Positions 45,349-63,438 are shown, counted from the first letter of the stretch. The stretch is DNA of 64,000 nucleotides from an uncultured Bacilli bacterium (GCA_950097225.1 CATNCE010000004.1:2493-66492); one strand, 5' to 3'. The notes: generated by a model not told the origin, from the sequence alone. Numbers and translations are program-made.

Positions 45349-46428
45349 TTATTTGTCTTCTTTTTCTTCGGGAATACGAACGATAAATTGATAAAATGGA
45401 TCAAAGTCAAATTCCTCTACTTCAAGAGCAACTTGATTTTTTTTAGCGTTAGCAATGATTTTTTTGATTCCTTCGATAACATCTTGACGAGTTTGATATT
45501 CAGGTTCTTTATAAACTTTCTCTTCAATTTCTTGAATAGTTTCAATTTCATCTGGTTCCTCTTCGTCATCTAATTCTAATAATTCATAGTCTCTTTCAAC
45601 CGAATCGGAAGCATTAATAGGCGTTTTAAAGGGATTAAATCCAAGGGATGGGTTCATATTAACAGATTCATTTTCTAGATTGTTGAAGAAAAGAGAATCT
45701 TTTTTCTTTTCTCTTGGAACTTCATTATTATAAACATCGGTCTTAGGGGTATAAGAATTAGCTAGAATATCAACGGAATTGCTGACTAAGCCGTCGATAT
45801 CAATATCCCCATTTTTTTGAAATACGCCTTGAATGATATCAATTTCATTGTCCAGTCTTCTTACGGGCCATTTTTCAGTAATTATTTTTTGAAGTAACTC
45901 GACTTGCTTACCTTTGTCATTTACTCTTAAAAGGCTTCTGGCGTGTCTTTCGCTGATTTTATCATGCAAAACAGCGTCTTGAACTGGCTCTGCTAAAGTT
46001 AAAAGACGAATTTTGTTGGCAACACTGGATTGACTAGTACCTAATCTTTTAGCAAGTTGTTCTTGTGTTACATAGTTTCGATCGAGCAATTTCTTATATG
46101 ATTTAGCTTCTTCGATAGCTGATAGGTTGCGACGATGCGTATTTTCAATTATGGCTACTTCGGCTGATTCATTGTCATCGAGTTCAGCAATAATGGCTGG
46201 AACACTTGTTAAACCCGCCAAGGAAGCAGCTTTAAAACGACGCTCTCCGGCGATTATTTCAAACTTATCTCCTGCTCTTCTAAGTACAAGAGGCTGAATT
46301 ATTCCATGCTCTTTTATTGATGCTGCTAGTTCGTCTAAGGCTTCTTTATCAAATTGAAGTCTTGGTTGAAAGCGATTAGGAATAATACTATCAATATTAA
46401 TTAATCTTATTTGTGCTTCCATTTTCAT
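45349..46428 (-). CDS. ParB/Spo0J/Noc-family protein with Noc-like HTH and C-terminus and a long acidic insertion
   Basis: ParB N-domain (IPNRFQPR, GIIQPLVLRR, IIAGERRFKAA), HTH (VTQEQLAKRLGTSQSSVANKIRLL), ISERHARSLL, and C-terminal EVEEFDFDPFYQFIVRIPEE. Directly downstream of rsmG. No parA/soj adjacent. Confidence 0.85.
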   Translation of the reverse strand: MKMEAQIRLINIDSIIPNRFQPRLQFDKEALDELAASIKEHGIIQPLVLRRAGDKFEIIAGERRFKAASLAGLTSVPAIIAELDDNESAEVAIIENTHRRNLSAIEEAKSYKKLLDRNYVTQEQLAKRLGTSQSSVANKIRLLTLAEPVQDAVLHDKISERHARSLLRVNDKGKQVELLQKIITEKWPVRRLDNEIDIIQGVFQKNGDIDIDGLVSNSVDILANSYTPKTDVYNNEVPREKKKDSLFFNNLENESVNMNPSLGFNPFKTPINASDSVERDYELLELDDEEEPDEIETIQEIEEKVYKEPEYQTRQDVIEGIKKIIANAKKNQVALEVEEFDFDPFYQFIVRIPEEKEDK

Positions 46429-53029: not shown

Positions 53030-54379
53030 ATGGACAGAGAGAAATTTTGGAAAAATTGTCTGGATTATATTTATTCAAAAGTATCAACGATTTCATTTAA
53101 TATCTGGTTCAAAGATGCTGAATTAGTAAATATAAATAATGGAAATTTAGTAATTAAAGTTAATTCAACATATATAAAACAACATCTAACTACTTATTAT
53201 GATGATGTCATTGAAGAGGCAATTAATAATGAATCTGATGTGACTTATACTTATGAAATAGTAACGCAGGATGAAATAGTACACGATGAACCAGTAGTTA
53301 TTGAAGAGAGAATTGAGATTCCTAAATATAAAGACAATAATTCGAACTTAAATAAGGCTTATACTTTTGATAATTTTGTAATAGGGGAAACGAATCGTTT
53401 GGCAGCTACTGTAGGACTTTCTGTTGCTGAAGAACCAGGAAAAATATATAATCCATTATTTATATATGGAAAAAGCGGACTTGGGAAAACTCATTTGATG
53501 CATGCAATCGGAAATTTTATCAAGGAAAATTCAAGTAAAACCGTACTTTATATAACTAGTGAAACATTTATTGATGATTTTACGCGTTTATATAAAAAAG
53601 ATGATAGCAAATACGAATTAGAGGAGAATTTTAAGGATAAGTACCGAAATGTCGATGTTTTGATTATTGATGATATTCAATTTTTAGGAGGAGCGACAAA
53701 AACACAAGATGAATTTTTTAATACATTCAATTTTCTTCACGAAGGAAAAAAACAAATAATAATTAGTTCAGATAGATCACCTGATGACTTAAAATTGTTA
53801 GAGGATCGTTTAAAAACGCGTTTTTCCTGGGGGATAACAGTTAACATAACACCGCCAGATTATGAACTGCGATTAAAGATTATAAAAAATAAGATAACAG
53901 GCCACGAAGTTTCGCGATTAATAAAGAATGAGGTTCTTGAGTACATAGCTAATAATTGTGAAAGCGATGTTCGTCATTTAGAGGGTGCTATTAATCGTCT
54001 CTATGCAGTAACAGCAATGTATTCACCAAAGGAAATCAATTTAGAATTTGCCCAAGATGCCTTGCGTGATTATATAGGAAATTCTCTTTATATAACGAAT
54101 AACATCGCCAAAATTCAAAAAGCCGTAGCAGAGTACTTTGACTTAACTGTAGAAAACTTAAAAAGCAAGAAGAGAACAGCTAATATTAATAATGCTCGGC
54201 AAATCGCGATGTATATATGTAAGATGACAACAGAGGAGACAATTGAGCGAATAGGTTTAGAATTTAATCGCGATCATGCGACTGTTATTCATGCTTGTGA
54301 TAAAATTGATGAAGAATATAAGAAAAGTGATGAATTGCGCGAGCAAATTAAAGAGATTAAGAATAAAATTAGTAACTAA
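53030..54379 (+). CDS. dnaA: chromosomal replication initiator DnaA
   Basis: AAA+ motifs GKSGLGKTHLMHAIGN, LIIDDIQFL, and domain IV (RQIAMYICK...DHATVIHA). Confidence 0.97.
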   Translation: MDREKFWKNCLDYIYSKVSTISFNIWFKDAELVNINNGNLVIKVNSTYIKQHLTTYYDDVIEEAINNESDVTYTYEIVTQDEIVHDEPVVIEERIEIPKYKDNNSNLNKAYTFDNFVIGETNRLAATVGLSVAEEPGKIYNPLFIYGKSGLGKTHLMHAIGNFIKENSSKTVLYITSETFIDDFTRLYKKDDSKYELEENFKDKYRNVDVLIIDDIQFLGGATKTQDEFFNTFNFLHEGKKQIIISSDRSPDDLKLLEDRLKTRFSWGITVNITPPDYELRLKIIKNKITGHEVSRLIKNEVLEYIANNCESDVRHLEGAINRLYAVTAMYSPKEINLEFAQDALRDYIGNSLYITNNIAKIQKAVAEYFDLTVENLKSKKRTANINNARQIAMYICKMTTEETIERIGLEFNRDHATVIHACDKIDEEYKKSDELREQIKEIKNKISN

Positions 54380-54530: not shown

Positions 54531-55652
54531 ATGAAATTTTCCATAAAGAAAAATATAATATTAGAACAATTAACTAATGTAAGTAAGGCAATATCAACGA
54601 GAAATATTATTCCTATATTGAATGGTATAAAATTTGATCTTAATGATGAAGGTCTTTATTTAACAGCAAGTGATTCTGATTTAACTATTAAGTCATTTAT
54701 TCCTAGTGATAAGATTGAAAGTATTGATATGCAAGGAACAATAATTATTCAGAGTAAATATATATTAGAGATAATTAAAAAATTGCCTAGTGATATTGTT
54801 AATTTTGAAGTTATCGATAGTTTAAAGATATTAATATATACAGAGACTAGCCAATATAATTTAAATTGTTTAAATAGTGGGGATTATCCACAAATTGAAT
54901 TAAAGGAAAGAGAAAACTTTATTACTATAAAAGCTCTTTTCTTGAAGAAAATGATTAAACAGACTATTTTTGCTGTATCAACTCAAGAATCTCGTCCATT
55001 GTTAACGGGAATAAATGTTAAAGTTAATGGGGAGTTATTAGAGTGTGTTGCAACAGATTCATATCGTTTAGCTAAGAAGTCGATTGTATTAGATAAGCCA
55101 TATGATGATGTAGTCGATATCGTTATTCCTGGTAAAAATATTAGTGAACTAGATAAGATAATAACTGATGAGGAAAAAGATGTAGAAATTCATATATTTG
55201 ATAATAAGATAATGTTTAAATATGAGGGGATTTTATTTCAGTCTAATCTTCTTAATGGAAGTTATCCTAATACATCTAATTTTATTCCTGCCGAGTTTGT
55301 ACATATTATATCTGTAAAATTAAATGATTATTTTGCTTGTATTGATGGGGCGTCTCTTTTAACACAAAGTAAAGAGAAAAATATTGTCAAAATGGATGCT
55401 ATTGCCGATGAAATAGTGGTTAGTTCTTATGCATCAGAAATAGGGAAGGCAGAGAATAGAATAAGTGTAGAGCGCAATGTTACTGATGATATATCCATTT
55501 CTTTTAGTGCTAAATATATGATGGATGCTCTTAGAACTTTTGATGAAGAAGATATAATTATATGTATGAATAGTGATTCTAAGCCAATAGTTATTAAGTC
55601 AGCAACAGATGAATCTTTAATTCAACTAGTTTTACCTATAAAAACGTATTAA
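54531..55652 (+). CDS. dnaN: DNA polymerase III beta sliding clamp
   Basis: Full-length DnaN-like sequence in the conserved position after dnaA. Confidence 0.95.
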   Translation: MKFSIKKNIILEQLTNVSKAISTRNIIPILNGIKFDLNDEGLYLTASDSDLTIKSFIPSDKIESIDMQGTIIIQSKYILEIIKKLPSDIVNFEVIDSLKILIYTETSQYNLNCLNSGDYPQIELKERENFITIKALFLKKMIKQTIFAVSTQESRPLLTGINVKVNGELLECVATDSYRLAKKSIVLDKPYDDVVDIVIPGKNISELDKIITDEEKDVEIHIFDNKIMFKYEGILFQSNLLNGSYPNTSNFIPAEFVHIISVKLNDYFACIDGASLLTQSKEKNIVKMDAIADEIVVSSYASEIGKAENRISVERNVTDDISISFSAKYMMDALRTFDEEDIIICMNSDSKPIVIKSATDESLIQLVLPIKTY

Positions 55653-56309: not shown

Positions 56310-57410
56310 ATGATAATTTTAAATTTAAAATTGTTAAATTTTAGAAATTATGAAAAGTTAGAATTAGAATTTAATCCTTCAAAAAATATTATTATTGGTC
56401 CTAATGGAATGGGAAAGACGAATATTGTTGAAGCAATATATGTTCTGGCCTTTACTAAGTCTTTTCGAGGTTCTAAAGAAGAAGTAATTATTAGAAATAA
56501 TGCTGATTTAACCAGAGTAGAAGGAACAATAAAAGAAAAGTATAAAAATGATTATAAAGTGATTATTAGAAATAATTCTAAGCGAGTAAAAATTAATAAT
56601 ACTAATATTGATAGGTTAACAGACTATTTGTCCAATATTAATATTGTTTTGTTTACAGCAGAAGATTTAAAGTTGATAAAAGATACACCTAATACGAGAA
56701 GAAAGTTAATAAATATTGAATTATCACAATTTTCGAATGATTATTTAAAAATATTGACTTACTATAATAAGGTTTTAAAACAACGTAATTCCTATTTAAA
56801 GACCCTATACCTAAATGGTAATGCTTCGTTGGAATATTTGAGTATACTTACAGATCAATTAATTGAGTTAGGTTTAAAAGTTCATAGTTATCGAGAGGAT
56901 TTTATTAATGATATAAATTCTTATGTTAGGAATAATTATTTGAAGATAGCTGGAAAAGATGGCTTAATTTTAAATTATAAGTCGGATTATACAGGAAAAA
57001 CTAAAGAAGAAATAAAGAAGATGTATGAAAAAGAGAAGGATAGAGACGTTGTCTTAGGAAAAACTAATATCGGTGTTCATCGTGATGATTATGATTTTTG
57101 TCTTAATGATTTTAATTTAAAAGATTATGGATCAGAAGGAGAACAAAAGAATGCCATTATTTCTTTGAAAATGGCGGAAATAGAAATATTTAAGGATAAG
57201 AAGAAGATTACACCTATTTTGATATTAGATGATTTATTTAGTGAGTTGGATGAAGAGAAAATTAATAATATTTTAGAGTTTATAAGTGATGATATTCAAA
57301 CATTTGTAACAACTACTGAATTAGATAAAGTTTCAGATAAGCTTAAAGAAAATAGTAAAGTTATGAGCGTATCAAATGGAACGGTTAAGGAGGAAATATA
57401 TGAAAAATGA
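56310..57410 (+). CDS. recF: DNA replication and repair protein RecF
   Basis: Walker [10 protein letters not shown], signature GSEGEQK, Walker [13 protein letters not shown]. Confidence 0.95.
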
Positions 57411-59313
57411 TTATAATGATAGTTCTATTCAAGTTCTTGAAGGATTAGAAGCTGTTCGTAAAAGACCAGGGATGTATATTGGAACGACTAGTGAAAGAGG
57501 CTTACATCATTTAGTTTGGGAAATTGTTGATAACTCAGTTGATGAGGCTTTAGCAGGGTATTGTACAGAAATTCAAGTAACAATAGAAAAAGGAAATGTT
57601 ATAAGTGTTCGTGATAATGGACGTGGTATGCCTACAGGAATTAATGAAAAAACAGGGTTATCTACTGTTGAAACTATTTTTACTGTTTTACATGCTGGTG
57701 GTAAATTTGGTGGAGGAGGATATAAGGTATCTGGGGGATTACATGGAGTAGGAGCTTCTGTTGTAAATGCTTTATCTAATTGGTTAGAAGTTAAAGTATA
57801 TCGTGATGGTAAAGTCTATTTTCAACGCTTTGAAAATGGAGGAAAGCCATCGGGAACTTTGGCAGTTTCTGGGGAGACTGATCCTAATAATACGGGGACA
57901 GAAGTTAGATTTAAAGCGGATCCAGAAATATTTAGAGAAACGACTATTTATGATTATGATACTTTAGAACAAAGACTAAGAGAAATAGCTTTTTTAAATA
58001 AAGGGTTAAAGATATCACTTCGTGATGAGCGTGATGATGAGAAAAATGCTACTTATCATTATTTAGGTGGAATTATTGAGTATGTTGAACTTTTGAATAA
58101 AAATAAGACACCATTACACCAAAATGTTATTTATGTTGAAGGTGTACAAGATGGTATCGTTGTTGAAGTGGCTATGCAATATAATGATGGGTATAATGCT
58201 AATATATATTCATTTACAAATAATATTCATACTATTGAAGGTGGAACTCATGAAGATGGAGTTAAAGTAGCTTTAACAAGAGTTATTAATAATTATGCAA
58301 AGGCAAATAAAATATTAAAAGATAATGATGAGGCATTAACTGGAGAAGATGTTAGGGAAGGTATTACAATGATTGTTTCTTGTAAGCATCCTAATCCTCA
58401 GTTTGAAGGACAAACTAAAACGAAACTTGGTAATAGTGAAGTAAGAAAGATAGCCTCAGATTTATTTGCTGAGGGATTTGATAGATTTTTAATGGAAAAT
58501 CCAACTGAGGCACGAATGATTGTTGAAAAGTGTAGTACGGCAGCAAGAGCACGTATGGCAGCTAAGAAGGCAAGGGAACTTACTCGACGTAAGGGTGGAT
58601 TAGATATTATTAATAATATGAAGAAACTTACGGATTGTAAGAGTAAAGATCCTAGTGAGTGTGAGATATTTATTGTCGAGGGAGATTCAGCTGGGGGATC
58701 AGCTAAAGATGGTAGAGATTATATGACACAAGCAATTCTTCCTTTACGTGGTAAAATATTAAATGTTGAAAAAGCTCGTTTAGATAAGGCACTTGCTAAT
58801 GAAGAAATTAGAAGTATGATAACAGCTTTTGGAACGGGGATTGGGGAAGAATTTGATATTAGTAAATTAAGATATCATAAAATTATTATTATGACAGATG
58901 CTGATGTTGATGGAGCGCATATAAGAACCCTTTTATTGACTTTATTTTATAGATTCTTTAGACCAGTTGTAGAAGGTGGATATGTTTATGCGGCTACTCC
59001 TCCTTTATATAATATTATTTATGGAAAAAATCAGAAATTAGCTATGTCAGAAGAAGAGTTACAAGAGATATTGAGTTCTATTCCTGAGAATACTAAAAGG
59101 GAAATTAGAAGATTTAAGGGTTTAGGAGAGATGGATGCAATTGAGTTAAGAGAAACTACTATGAGTCCTGAACATCGTACTTTAAAACAAATTACAGTAG
59201 AAGATGCTATGGCAGCAGATGCGGCATTTGAGTTATTAATGAGTGATAATGTTGAACCTAGAAGAGATTTTATTATAGAGAATGCACATTATGTTGAAAA
59301 CTTGGATGTATAG
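57400..59313 (+). CDS. gyrB: DNA gyrase subunit B
   Basis: [23 protein letters not shown] ATPase and Toprim (EGDSAGGS) motifs. Start chosen at MKNDYN. Overlaps the recF end by 11 nt. Confidence 0.95.
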
Positions 59314-59322
59314 GAGGTAAGT

Positions 59323-61776
59323 ATGGATAATAATGGAATTGTAAAAATTAATATTGAAGATGAAATTAAGGATTCATTTTTGGAATATTCAATGAGTGTA
59401 ATTGTTGCACGTGCTTTACCTGACCTTAGAGATGGTTTAAAGCCAGTTCACAGACGTATTTTATATTCTATGTATGAGAATGGCTATACACCTGATAAAC
59501 CTTTCAGAAAGTCTGCTAAGACGGTTGGAGAGGTTATGGGTAATTACCATCCGCATGGAGATTCATCTATTTATGATGCTATGGTACGTATGGCTCAGCC
59601 TTTTTCTTATCGTAATGTATTAATTGATGGCCATGGAAATTTTGGTTCTATGGATGGCGATGGTGCAGCAGCAATGCGTTATACTGAGGCTAGACTTTCT
59701 AAGCTTTCATTGGAATTATTAAGGGATATAAAGAAGGATACTGTTGATTTTGTTCCTAATTTCGACGATACAACAACAGAACCATCGATATTACCATGTC
59801 GTTTTCCTAATATTTTGGTAAATGGTACAGTTGGTATTGCCGTTGGTATGGCAACAAATATTCCTCCTCATAATTTAGGAGAGGTAATAAATGGATGTAT
59901 TGCCTATATCGATAATCATGATATAACTACTGATGAATTGATGGAGCATGTAAAAGGTCCAGATTTTCCAACAGGAGCTGTTATTCTTGGTAATTCGGGT
60001 ATTAGAAGAGCTTATGAAACTGGTAAAGGAACTATTACTTTACGAGGTAAGGTGGCAATCGAGGAAAATAATGGACACCAAACCATTATTATTACTGAGT
60101 TACCATATATGGTTAATAAGAAACTTTTTCAACATCGTATTGCTGAGTTAGTTCGCGATAAGTTAATCGATGGAATCGCTGATTTACATGAAGAAACTAA
60201 CCTTGAAAATGGTGTTAAAATTGTTATTACTCTTAAAAAGGATGCTAATGCTAATGTAGTTTTGAACAATTTATACAAGCAAACAGCATTACAATCGAAT
60301 TTTAGTATTAATTTGTTAATGATTGATCAACAAAAACCATGTACTTATGGATTGAAGACAATTATTTCTAAATATGTTGAGTTCCAAAAAGAAGTTATTA
60401 TTCGTCGTACTAAGTATGATTTGGGTAAAGCTGAGGATCGTGTGCATATTTTAAATGGTTTGAAGATTGCGTTAGATAATATTGATGAAGTTGTTCACAT
60501 TATTCGTAATTCGAAGACTGATGAGATTGCTAAACAGCAATTAATTGAACGTTTTGGTTTGACTGATATTCAAACTGAGGCAATATTAGAAATGCGCCTT
60601 AGAAGATTAACTGGCTTAGAAATCGACAAGATTTTAGAAGAATTAGCTGAGTTATTAGAAAAAATTAAGTATTATAGAGCGATTTTAGAAAGCGATGAGA
60701 TGGTTTTAGGAATTATTAAGGATGAATTAATTGAAATAAGAGAACGTTATGCTGATGAACGTCGTACTTATATCGATATGACCGCTGTTGATTTCATTGA
60801 TGATGAGTCTTTAATTCCTGAAGAAAACATTATTGTTAGTATAACTGATAAGGGTTATATTAAAAGATGTACATCAGATACATTTAAATCTCAACATCGT
60901 GGTGGTGTAGGAGTTAAGGGAATGTCGACGAATGAAGAGGATTATGTTAAACATTTGATTAATTGCTCAACGCATGATTATGTTGCATTTTTTACTAATA
61001 AGGGAAAAGTGTATCGTATTAAAGGTTATGAAATACCAGAGTATTCTCGCCAAGCTAAAGGACTTCCAATCATTAATCTATTGCAAATAGAGAAGGATGA
61101 GCGAATTAGTTCAATAGTTGCATATAACCGTGAACTTGAGGATTCTTATCTGTGTTTTGCTACTAAAAATGGTATCGTTAAACGTACTAGATTGGATGAA
61201 TTTGAAAATATTCGAACAAGCGGTAAAATTGCTATTAGTTTAAGAGAAGGAGACGAGCTTTTAGATGTTAAGAGTACAGATGGAGATTCTAAGATTATTT
61301 TAGCTTCTACTTCAGGCCGCATGGTTGTTTTTGACGAGAATGAGATTAGACCAATGGGACGTACAGCTTCGGGAGTTCGTGGAATTAATTTAGATGGTGA
61401 ATTCTGTACAGGAATGGAAATCGGCAAGCTTGATGATAATATTTTAGTTGTTACTAAGAATGGTTATGGAAAGAAAACCTTTGTTAATGAGTACAGAATG
61501 ACTAAACGTGGTAGCAAAGGAGTAAAGGCTCTTAGCATAACTGATAAGAATGGACCATTAGTTGCTCATAAAATTGTTAACAATGATTCTGATTTAATGA
61601 TTATTACTGAATCAGGCATGTTGATTCGTTTACCAATTGAACAAATTTCTCAATTAGGCCGAGTTACACAAGGTGTTAAATTGATAAATTTGAGAGAGAA
61701 TCAATTTGTATCAACAGTGAGTGTTGTTTCTAAAGATGAGGAAGTGACAACTGATGAAGAGAGTGTGGAAGAATAG
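59323..61776 (+). CDS. gyrA: DNA gyrase subunit A
   Basis: [18 protein letters not shown] active-site Tyr region, and C-terminal beta-pinwheel repeats. Confidence 0.97.
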
Positions 61777-61843
61777 AACACTTTCTTTTTTTTTGTTCTT
61801 CTTTTTAATATAATGTTAATAAGAAGAGCGGCTATTCGTTTTA

Positions 61844-61859
61844 TGTTTCACGTGAAACT
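61844..61859. promoter_or_regulatory. parS-like site 1 (15/16)
   Basis: TGTTTCACGTGAAACT. The perfect palindrome is 14 bp (61845-61858). Confidence 0.8.
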
Positions 61860-61903
61860 ACACATTTTGAAAATCTGTTTTTAACATGTTTAATGATAAC
61901 CAA

Positions 61904-61919
61904 TGTTTCACGTGAAACA
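61904..61919. promoter_or_regulatory. parS site 2
   Basis: TGTTTCACGTGAAACA. The perfect palindrome extends to 20 bp (61902-61921). Confidence 0.85.
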
Positions 61920-62005
61920 TTCATTTAATATAATTATCTGTGTTTATGAGGGAAAAAAGTACTAAAATATTCAAAATACAGATAAATAGCATAGTACTTT
62001 TCTAA

Positions 62006-62021
62006 TGTTTCACGTGAAACA
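62006..62021. promoter_or_regulatory. parS site 3
   Basis: TGTTTCACGTGAAACA. The perfect palindrome extends to 32 bp (61998-62029). Confidence 0.85.
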
Positions 62022-62111
62022 TTAGAAAATAATAGTTATGGTGTTAAAAATCGAACCTCATAATCAGAATTTGTAGCTTAATTGCTAGAAGTGGGTTATC
62101 TATTTATACGA

Positions 62112-62127
62112 TGTTTCACGTGAAACA
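62112..62127. promoter_or_regulatory. parS site 4
   Basis: TGTTTCACGTGAAACA. The perfect palindrome is 18 bp (62111-62128). Confidence 0.85.
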
Positions 62128-62324
62128 TTGATTGTTGGCATTGATAAATAAATCCGATGTTAGTTTTAATTATATTATACTGAAAGGTTTATGTCAGAGT
62201 TCAATATTTAACTTGAGATGTAGCATGCTTTCTGCTTTTTTTATAAATAGTTCCTAAAAAGGATGATAATTTCTAACAAATAATTAATATTGGATTATAT
62301 ATTAAGTTGGTTAAAATTTCACAA

Positions 62325-62340
62325 TGTTTCACGTGAAACA
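62325..62340. promoter_or_regulatory. parS site 5
   Basis: TGTTTCACGTGAAACA. The perfect palindrome extends to 30 bp (62318-62347). Confidence 0.85.
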
Positions 62341-62419
62341 TTGTGAATATAAATATTTCATATTTTATCTAGAATAATTCTTATGAACTTAATTTTTATT
62401 CTTCGCTTTCTTATTGATA

Positions 62420-62435
62420 TGTTTCACGTGAAACA
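62420..62435. promoter_or_regulatory. parS site 6
   Basis: TGTTTCACGTGAAACA. The perfect palindrome extends to 28 bp (62414-62441). Confidence 0.85.
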
Positions 62436-62537
62436 TATCAAGTAAATATTCTTTGTTTTTTTATAAAAGAAACAATGATTTTAAGCAAAAAAGTAAATAT
62501 TAGATAGTGTATTTGGAATCTATCAGTCGTTTTTCAA

Positions 62538-62553
62538 TGTTTCACGTGAAACA
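62538..62553. promoter_or_regulatory. parS site 7
   Basis: TGTTTCACGTGAAACA. The perfect palindrome extends to 28 bp (62532-62559). Confidence 0.85.
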
Positions 62554-62634
62554 TTGAAAGAAAATAAAGATGAAATTAACTAATGTATTTATAAAGAAGG
62601 AGTTGAATACTTATGACTGCAAGTTCGATTTATA

Positions 62635-62650
62635 TGTTTCACGTGAAACA
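62635..62650. promoter_or_regulatory. parS site 8
   Basis: TGTTTCACGTGAAACA. The perfect palindrome extends to 22 bp (62632-62653). Confidence 0.85.
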
Positions 62651-62744
62651 TATTTTATACAGATATTTTGTTTTTGAAAGAAATGTTATCTTTTTCTGTA
62701 CAAATATTAATAATTATTGAAGTAATGTAAACGTATATCATCAA

Positions 62745-62760
62745 TGTTTCACGTGAAACA
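62745..62760. promoter_or_regulatory. parS site 9
   Basis: TGTTTCACGTGAAACA. The perfect palindrome extends to 20 bp (62743-62762). Confidence 0.85.
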
Positions 62761-62921
62761 TTAGTTGTAAATATAGTTATCAACATTTTATTTTTATTTT
62801 ATTCGTAGATATAAGGCTATTTCTTGAAATCTGTGTGTTGTGACAGAAATTTAGAATTTGTTTTAAGCATAAAATGGCAAAAAAAGCTATACTTTTTTAT
62901 AAAATATGTTATAATTTAATT

Positions 62922-62998
62922 GCGCAACAGATATGTTAGAACTTGGTCAGGATCGGAAGATAGCAGCCATAATATCCTCTATTTGTGTGCGCTTTTTT
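62922..62998 (+). ncRNA. ffs: small signal recognition particle RNA (4.5S/scRNA type)
   Basis: GGTCAGGATCGGAAGATAGCAGCC matches the conserved SRP domain IV motif (GGUCAGGUCCGGAAGGAAGCAGCC in E. coli 4.5S). The closing helix is GCGCAACAGATA / TATTTGTGTGCGC followed by a T-run. Extended -10 TGtTATAAT at 62907-62915. Position next to tadA/dnaX as in Bacillus. Confidence 0.75.
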
Positions 62999-63012
62999 TA
63001 TGAGGTGATAAT

Positions 63013-63438
63013 GTGAATGAATATTTTAATATAGCGCTTAAAGAAGCTGATAAAGCGCTTCGTTCTTTCGACGTTCCTGTGGGTGCAGTTATAGTTTTCA
63101 ACAATAAAATTATTTCTAGAGCACATAATAAAAGAATTCGGACACATGATGTGACTAATCATGCTGAGATTATCGCGATTAAAAAGGCCGCAAAAAAAAT
63201 GAGGGATTGGAGATTGTCCGATTGTGATTTATATGTTACTTTAGAACCTTGTGATATGTGTAAGGAAATTATCCTTCAATCACGGATAAGAAGCGTCTAT
63301 TATTTAGCAAATAAGCCTTCTTATAAAAAAGGGTATAAAAAAACTGAGTTTGTGAATGTGGGAACAGATATGAGTTTTCAACAACAAGAATCGTCCGATA
63401 AGTTATCAACATTTTTTAAAATGAACTGCAAAAGATAG
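63013..63438 (+). CDS. tadA: tRNA-specific adenosine deaminase TadA
   Basis: CDA zinc motifs HAEIIAI and LEPCDMC. GTG start after GAGGTGA. Confidence 0.9.
   Translation: MNEYFNIALKEADKALRSFDVPVGAVIVFNNKIISRAHNKRIRTHDVTNHAEIIAIKKAAKKMRDWRLSDCDLYVTLEPCDMCKEIILQSRIRSVYYLANKPSYKKGYKKTEFVNVGTDMSFQQQESSDKLSTFFKMNCKR

Follow-up and report, generated by a model that had tools for sequence, protein, structure and literature searches.

Copy-specific perfect palindromes around the parS sites of a predicted chromosomal centromere in an uncultured Bacilli bacterium

The parS sites are among the best-studied bacterial DNA sites and are treated as a 16-bp duplex motif. In systems of the Bacillus subtilis type, the sites (consensus TGTTNCACGTGAAACA) lie near oriC in genomes that also carry soj-spo0J, and in species with multiple parS sites, these are clustered near the origin. 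Here, we analyze a stretch of 64,000 nucleotides from an uncultured Bacilli bacterium (GCA_950097225.1, CATNCE010000004.1:2493-66492; this whole stretch is referred to as the window) in which nine parS sites form an array (61844..62762) within a gene-free stretch of 1.15 kb, between gyrA and the gene for the small signal recognition particle (SRP) RNA. The 16-bp sequence is identical to that of the B. subtilis-type sites, and the origin proximity, the clustering and the presence of soj-spo0J in the genome are shared as well. Unlike in those systems, however, nine sites are packed into 0.9 kb, they are the only ones in the genome, and each is embedded in a copy-specific palindrome. Throughout the lineage, the two flanks of a parS site evolve jointly, as mirror images of each other; most of the sites carry arms despite recombinational loss, and the mirror symmetry appears to be constrained.

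Some other described systems resemble this locus in part. The plasmid centromere sopC of F is likewise a regular array of short palindromic sites of the ParB type, but it consists of tandem, near-identical 43-bp units with a 16-bp inverted repeat, whereas here only an 18-bp core is common to the copies, and the spacers and arms are unique. A mobile palindrome similar to repetitive extragenic palindromes or miniature inverted-repeat transposable elements (REP/MITE), or a sopC-like whole-unit repeat, was rejected for the same reason, namely, that the arms are not common to the copies. In quasipalindromes that undergo template switching (E. coli hotspots; RNA hairpins, PMC8794818; yeast, PMC13100816 and PMC8604942), arms are perfected and lengthened as they are here, with multi-base or compensatory changes appearing together, seeded by a short palindrome that in yeast is the site of a dimeric protein. 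Unlike in those cases, the process here would act systematically on a single class of sites, in a bacterial centromere and lineage-wide, and the arms are apparently constrained afterwards. Intrinsic terminators are similar to the parS1 site of some relatives, which has arms followed by a T-run, whereas the sites in the window lack a downstream T-run. In the literature searched, we found no paper linking parS to cruciforms, hairpins or extended co-varying palindromes.

The nine palindromes and their departure from chance

Eight of the nine sites are exact copies of TGTTTCACGTGAAACA and the remaining copy has one mismatch, compared to a chance expectation of 0.01 matches; the successive spacings are 60, 102, 106, 213, 95, 118, 97 and 110 bp. 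When the symmetry is followed outward from each dyad center, the perfect palindromes in sites 1 to 9 are 14, 20, 32, 18, 30, 28, 28, 22 and 20 bp long, respectively. The nine sites and these nine lengths had been reported in an initial annotation of the window and were reproduced exactly upon re-measurement, and the arms quoted there are correct; the interval that it gave, 61998-62559, takes in sites 3 to 7 but not the full array (61844-62762).

Site 1 (61845..61858) is a degenerate parS, TGTTTCACGTGAAACT, with a 14-bp palindrome and no extension, and site 2 (61902..61921) is a 20-bp perfect palindrome, AATGTTTCACGTGAAACATT. Site 3 (61998..62029), with 32 bp and the arms TTTTCTAA and TTAGAAAA, is the longest spacer-less palindrome of the genome and has a predicted hairpin energy, as single-stranded DNA, of −11.2 kcal/mol (z = −5.7). 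Site 4 (62111..62128) consists of the 18-bp core only, with a G/T mismatch at pair 10 and a predicted hairpin of −4.9 kcal/mol. Site 5 (62318..62347) is a 30-bp perfect palindrome with the arms TTCACAA and TTGTGAA (hairpin of −11.8 kcal/mol), followed by two perfect palindromes of 28 bp, namely, site 6 (62414..62441), with the arms TTGATA and TATCAA, and site 7 (62532..62559), with the arms TTTCAA and TTGAAA, and then by the perfect palindromes of 22 bp in site 8 (62632..62653) and 20 bp in site 9 (62743..62762). The four sites of 28-32 bp have AT-rich arms and form predicted single-strand hairpins of −10 to −12 kcal/mol, compared to about −5 kcal/mol for the core only, i.e. the extension doubles the predicted stability. 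The 5' arms in the window are rich in T and the 3' arms in A, and no stem is followed by a T-run or U-tract.

For the permutation tests, the eight sites with a perfect core were used and the extension was counted beyond pair 10, yielding 0, 6, 1, 5, 4, 4, 1 and 0 additional pairs. The probability that a flanking pair is complementary by chance, roughly estimated at 0.3 in the initial annotation, is 0.315 with the regional composition and 0.326 with the flank-specific composition. The composition-matched permutation test suggested there strongly favored the pattern: among 20,000 flank shuffles, none reached the observed sum and none contained four sites extended by 4 pairs or more. When the right flanks were re-paired with the left flanks in all 40,320 possible ways, the observed sum was reached by 10 arrangements. 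Thus, the symmetry is copy-specific and does not reflect a shared longer consensus, an explanation that was ruled out by this test along with the cross-site pairing analysis described below. The initial annotation was correct in stating that the copies do not duplicate a single extended unit: outside the core, the arms differ from copy to copy.

In a scan of the genome, the counts of spacer-less perfect palindromes matched a first-order Markov simulation except at parS, and the four longest such palindromes (28-32 bp) were all parS sites. A general palindrome-extending process was considered and rejected, given that the counts outside parS at half-lengths 8 to 11 were 55, 17, 6 and 3 compared to 52, 17, 5 and 1 in the simulation.

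The arms of sites 4 to 9 recur in ten contigs that were independently assembled from other samples, so an assembly artefact does not explain them. In several samples, Logan contigs (L176-L181) begin exactly at the center of site 3 (62013/62014), where palindromes about as long as the assembler word, or longer, probably break de Bruijn assemblies. A practical consequence is that k-mer assemblies are probably interrupted precisely at the centromere, and arrays of this kind would frequently be fragmented in, or missing from, metagenome bins. The pattern of copy-specific perfect palindromes is real and well above chance.

Mirror-image co-variation and constraint in related arrays

Arrays of parS downstream of gyrA were identified in 19 of the 21 other species of the genus, with 2-9 sites each and a spacing of about 100 bp. 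A metagenome scan for close relatives gave 8 loci, whereas a genus-level search added no new genomes. Pooling the genus with four relatives that have gyrA-linked arrays (24 genomes in all) yielded 115 unique sites. The parS sites from Flavobacteriia and Ruminococcus were too few to be informative, and the results cover this phylum sample.

Pair 9 is always A:T (96 of 96 sites in the genus and 113 of 113 distinct rows), with complementarity of 1.00 regardless of whether the two flanks come from the same site or from different sites, so the invariant core is 18 bp long; this core, ATGTTTCACGTGAAACAT, is invariant in the genus. At pairs 10 to 16, the complementarity between the two flanks of the same site was 0.75, 0.70, 0.68, 0.68, 0.60, 0.49 and 0.49 (115 sites), compared to 0.49, 0.28, 0.32, 0.35, 0.34, 0.36 and 0.36 when the partner was taken from other sites of the same genome. 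From pair 17 on, no consistent excess was detected (0.31-0.43 for the same site vs. 0.29-0.41 for other sites). In a gapless alignment, the covariation score was 0.248, compared to 0.137 ± 0.007 in shuffles, of which 0 of 500 reached the observed value; when the partners were slid by 1-3 columns, the score was 0.115-0.137. Across the 115 sites, only the 18-bp core is invariant and cross-site complementarity of the arms is at the background level. At pair 10, A:T and T:A predominate, and the arms have a weak genus-wide consensus, TTTCAA/TTGAAA, to which those of site 7 conform.

Each palindrome is perfect as far as a boundary that varies with the copy, and past that boundary the pairing is random. 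The distribution of perfect half-lengths is nearly flat over 10-17 and then falls, with 29 of the 115 sites unextended. Past the first mismatch, complementarity drops to the background level (0.26-0.43), and at least 4 further pairs resumed in only 6 of the 115 sites. The stem continued past 7 of 41 transition-type mismatches compared to 1 of 74 mismatches of other types; continuation past a G:T mismatch on the sense strand (5 of 22) was not significantly more frequent than otherwise (2 of 19).

Orthologous arrays, the comparison of which had also been suggested initially, have symmetric flanks with symmetric (compensatory) changes. At one orthologous site, sister species of the genus have AAAGCAA..TTGCTTT and AAAACAA..TTGTTTT, respectively, i.e. 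G:C and A:T at the same pair. Extended parS palindromes are also present in other families of the class and phylum sampled, a group that includes code-4 genomes of about 1 Mb. In the complete genomes of a code-4 family, the order is serS, parS1, parS2, ffs, and in 7 of 7 species parS2 forms a perfect 38-56 bp palindrome, even though the third codon positions of serS are 24-45% different. The parS2 arms vary among the species (TATAAAT, TATCAAAT, TATGAAAA, TATAGAAT and TCTAAAT), each difference in one arm being matched by its mirror image in the other, and one of these is a symmetric 1-bp insertion; the right arm mirrors nearly the whole spacer, including the T-run that serves the neighboring terminator. 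The arm changes in the code-4 family are symmetric but slower than those at synonymous sites. Cultivable code-4 relatives carry these 38-56 bp versions, so the finding is directly testable there.

Within the species, strains differ in the array. A T/C polymorphism at 62318 cuts the palindrome of site 5 to 28 bp, another T/C polymorphism at 62438 (pair 11) breaks the stem of site 6 internally, the core of site 9 (62752) is CATGTG in 6 of 10 strain contigs, as opposed to CACGTG, and a 10-bp indel is found between sites 3 and 4 (62042-62051). Entire units are lost as well. In one strain contig (L178), two whole units are missing (62417-62631), and the joined flanks add two pairs, resulting in 22 bp. 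A deletion of the same kind is seen in a different genome (L022), where the intervening units are gone and the left and right flanks of a chimeric site stem from two different units; these flanks are unrelated, and only the 18-bp core is left. The array turns over by parS-parS recombination, which erases arms. The production of chimeric sites with unrelated flanks helps explain the armless sites, and because most of the sites carry arms despite this erasure, the arms have to be rebuilt at a comparable pace.

Two of 45 arm nucleotides are polymorphic within the species, both polymorphisms being pair-breaking, and 6 of 837 spacer nucleotides are polymorphic. Between sister species, 14 orthologous site pairs within the genus were compared, with control positions taken just outside the palindrome or at the same positions in non-extended sites. 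Differing bases were found at 1 of 94 arm positions compared to 20 of 158 control positions (Fisher P = 7 × 10−4) and 87 of 784 positions in the distal flanks. In the arms, then, polymorphism is high relative to divergence (2/45 vs. 1/94), whereas in the spacers the opposite holds (6/837 vs. about 11%). High polymorphism combined with low divergence resembles the behavior of weakly deleterious variants, and purifying selection for perfect arm symmetry appears likely from these sequence comparisons.

Hairpin-templated copying and competing explanations

Because the arms match within a copy but differ between copies, they do not come from half-site-by-half-site reading by a protein; the only trait common to all arms is the self-pairing of the strand, and therefore the signal is one of intrastrand pairing. 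Of the explanations listed in the initial annotation, hairpin or cruciform potential and a palindrome-homogenizing process are both supported by the permutation and ortholog tests, whereas ParB contacts are not. We favor, with moderate confidence, the interpretation that the extra dyad symmetry is a footprint of strand self-pairing left by hairpin-templated copying, to which purifying selection probably adds.

Under this interpretation, selection for ParB binding would keep the 18-bp core invariant, and the core could act as a stable snap-back seed. A nascent strand in which the core has been copied, during replication or repair synthesis, would fold back on itself, copy its own upstream flank for a few bases and then return to the template. 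By such a template switch, i.e. inverted-repeat expansion, one flank would be rewritten in a single step as the reverse complement of the other, and the outcome would be perfect, copy-specific arms with abrupt ends. Recombination between parS sites would erase arms and fresh switches would rebuild them; once formed, the arms would stay perfect and change together, probably with the help of purifying selection.

Template switching makes and repairs perfect stems and can introduce multi-base compensatory changes in one event (PMC8794818), and it homogenizes and expands inverted repeats, among them yeast binding sites for transcription factors that act as dimers (PMC13100816, PMC8604942). At parS, a template switch would account for the perfect-then-random shape, the flat distribution of lengths, the symmetric indel and the mirrored, unrelated T-run, and stems that are Watson-Crick-only, with no significant tolerance of G:T, fit a DNA-level process. 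The sharp boundary of the perfect arms, with background beyond, and the changes on both arms among orthologues, including an indel, are among the marks by which template switching is recognized. The density of single-nucleotide polymorphisms in the arms within the species (2/45 vs. 6/837 in spacers) was also counted in its favor, as a sign of mutation-prone positions. By comparison, the de novo building of 5-8 matched pairs by point mutation, at many sites and repeatedly after recombination, is implausible. Template switching would thus be the generator of the arms behind the observed co-variation, boundary, restriction to parS, symmetric changes and recombinational erasure. If the process is purely mutational, parS would be a clean natural case, in bacteria, of an inverted repeat expanding where a dimeric protein binds, and a warning that 'compensatory' changes need not imply a functional stem.

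Several points weigh against hairpin-templated copying as the explanation. Among the 14 orthologous site pairs, there was no polarized one-step event and none was decisive, and the sole clustered change on one arm (L048 vs. L051) does not fit a copied tract. Symmetric changes were seen in 0 of 47 arm pairs compared to about 5 expected under neutral copying alone; together with the slow divergence of the arms, this result indicates that some selection is needed besides copying. The restriction to parS is accounted for by argument only, in that parS would be the sole long GC-centered palindrome kept perfect over long times. Furthermore, the set of orthologs is small and comes from related genomes, and the P values overstate the evidence. 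With regard to repair genes, MutS and the large subunit of exonuclease VII (XseA) are present in the genome, and no match to the SbcD hairpin nuclease above the family cut-off (best 29 bits) was found in the 92%-complete assembly; the loss of repair genes as an enabling factor is weak at best.

The main rival of hairpin-templated copying, or a complement to it, is the possible, if doubtful, explanation that the perfect palindromes are kept by selection because extrusion of a DNA hairpin or cruciform is useful in itself, conceivably, as an HU/ParB-complex junction, a single-stranded loop aiding SMC loading or a supercoil sink. Ordinary mutation followed by compensatory change would then yield the arms, with or without template switching. 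The slower divergence of the arms (1/94 vs. 20/158 and 87/784), the excess of arm polymorphism over divergence, which is the pattern of weak purifying selection, and perfect palindromy in 7 of 7 code-4 species despite 24-45% synonymous divergence are all in agreement with this possibility. So are the strict Watson-Crick perfection, which is a requirement for extrusion, the doubling of hairpin stability from about −5 to between −10 and −12 kcal/mol, the persistence of the trait over the whole phylum sample, and the absence of an above-cut-off match to SbcD in a genome that is 92% complete. However, 29 of the 115 sites are unextended, the boundaries vary over 10-17 pairs, and arm-breaking polymorphisms segregate within the species. 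Moreover, extrusion would split parS into two half-site hairpins and should block the loading of ParB dimers, and at physiological supercoiling little extrusion is to be expected from palindromes of 20-32 bp.

A stronger version of this idea, which we put forward tentatively and deem rather unlikely, is that the centromere in this small-genome, Mollicutes-related lineage is partly a structured element, where selection would keep parS foldable and the extruded form would be used. The proposed uses are a junction or loop for the ParB complex or SMC loading, or self-templated repair of the GC-containing core against AT pressure. The constraint on the arms and the 38-56 bp palindromes across diverged species are compatible with such a structured centromere. 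Should the symmetry prove to be selected, a structural component (non-B DNA) would have to be added to the bacterial centromere, and no current ParB model includes one.

It is improbable, albeit worth considering, that the palindromes act as RNA hairpins in a transcribed array, for example, after read-through from gyrA, serving as terminators, pause or processing sites, or 3'-end protectors. In a scan of 61650-63050, no terminator-like site was detected on either strand, including the gap between the gyrA stop codon and the array (61777-61843); given the lack of an intrinsic terminator there, gyrA transcripts may enter the array, i.e. the centromere may be transcribed by read-through, which would favor a role at the RNA level. 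The relatives provide further support. In the code-4 family, parS1 abuts the serS stop codon in the form AAAATAA-parS-TTATTTT, followed by a T-run, in a terminator-like layout. In a different family (L011), a 50-bp palindrome, AAAAAAGCAA-parS-TTGCTTTTTT, is built around a second parS; it is flanked by A- and T-runs and resembles a terminator acting in both directions. Elsewhere in the class, members of several families have a parS directly before ..AGGGTGGC (L011, L119-L121, L123, L128, L129, L134-L136, L193, L194). This sequence resembles the conserved T-box sequence, in which case parS would presumably occupy the position of stem III of the T-box leader. Passage past G:T mismatches is slightly more frequent on the sense strand (5/22 vs. 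2/19), as expected of RNA stems, but not significantly so. Against this role, the stems in the window lack a U-tract, have T-rich 5' and A-rich 3' arms and include 0 terminator-like sites, and they are strictly Watson-Crick, unlike typical selected RNA stems. In addition, the longest palindromes of the relatives (parS2, 38-56 bp) lie between a terminator and the ffs promoter, where little transcription is expected. As judged from these features, an RNA-level role is a weaker rival in this window, although it clearly applies to some of the parS sites in relatives.

Extended recognition, whereby ParB or a partner would contact bases beyond the 16-bp site and prefer symmetric flanks, or whereby such flanks would favor the nucleation of spreading, is highly improbable. 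The invariance of pair 9 and the predominance of A:T or T:A at pair 10 imply a recognized core of at least 18 bp, and the weak shared consensus TTTCAA/TTGAAA points in the same direction. However, the excess symmetry resides within the copy (0.60-0.75) rather than across sites (0.28-0.49), a contrast that beyond pair 10 amounts to 0.60-0.70 within sites vs. 0.28-0.36 across sites. All four pair types are found at each position, and independent reading of half-sites gives a shared consensus rather than co-variation.

Chance symmetry in AT-rich DNA, or an assembly artefact, has practically no probability: flanks with about 75% A+T, where about a third of the flanking pairs are complementary by chance, and the misbehavior of de Bruijn assemblers at palindromes, with Logan contigs breaking at the 32-bp site, speak for it, but an extension as large as that observed was reached in 0 of 20,000 shuffles and in only 10 of the 40,320 re-pairings, the same arms occur in independent assemblies and the same pattern in complete genomes, and the arms include matched G/C positions.

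Genomic setting and neighboring genes

Apart from the nine sites of the array, no parS match with one mismatch or less is present in the whole 1.61-Mb source assembly, which is 92% complete, and the array is predicted to be the only centromere of the chromosome, with its sites as the putative loading sites of ParB/Spo0J. Three features of chromosomal parS are found here, namely, the 16-bp motif, proximity to the origin and, in the genome, a ParB with the ParB_N and HTH_ParB domains along with a ParA partner. The array starts about 7.5 kb past dnaA. Upstream of it, Pfam matches identify dnaA (53030-54379), dnaN (54531-55652), recF (56310-57410), gyrB (57376-59313) and, directly adjacent, gyrA (59323..61776, plus strand). 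Directly downstream is the small SRP RNA gene ffs (62916..63001, plus strand; Rfam RF00169, 59 bits), followed by tadA (63013-63438) and dnaX (from 63474), again identified with Pfam.

The canonical soj-spo0J pair, the products of which would be expected to bind the sites of the array, is located outside the window, on another contig (G000:C18, L036 600-2274); Soj is 266 aa long, and Spo0J, of 296 aa, matches ParB_N with 122 bits and HTH_ParB with 116 bits. The genome has three genes of the ParB_N family: those for Spo0J, for a paralogue in the window, and for the ParB of a third ParA/ParB pair. The paralogue, detected by domain search (45349..46428, minus strand), occupies the Noc position, after rsmG. 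The third pair (contig C2, L038 925-2785) adjoins a gene for a secreted protein and may be part of a mobile element.

A palindrome resembling the Noc box, ATTATTTCCCGGGAAATAAT (20-24 bp), is found at G000:C4:67026-67037, about 530 bp past the end of the window (L230 1501). Such a palindrome is present once per genome, in a conserved position, in 21 of 22 genomes of the genus; its distance to the parS array ranges from 0.2 to 2.7 kb and is about 1.7-2 kb in most cases. We tried it as a second palindromic control for a ParB-family protein, but a single conserved orthologous copy per genome gives no information. In one genome (G006), three further Noc-box-like copies are interleaved with the parS array.

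Two related arrays (L048 6437-7212 and L051 6438-7352) have additional features: DnaA-box-like TTATCCACA or TCCACA motifs abut several of their parS sites, and in both species the first parS lies within the 3' end of gyrA.

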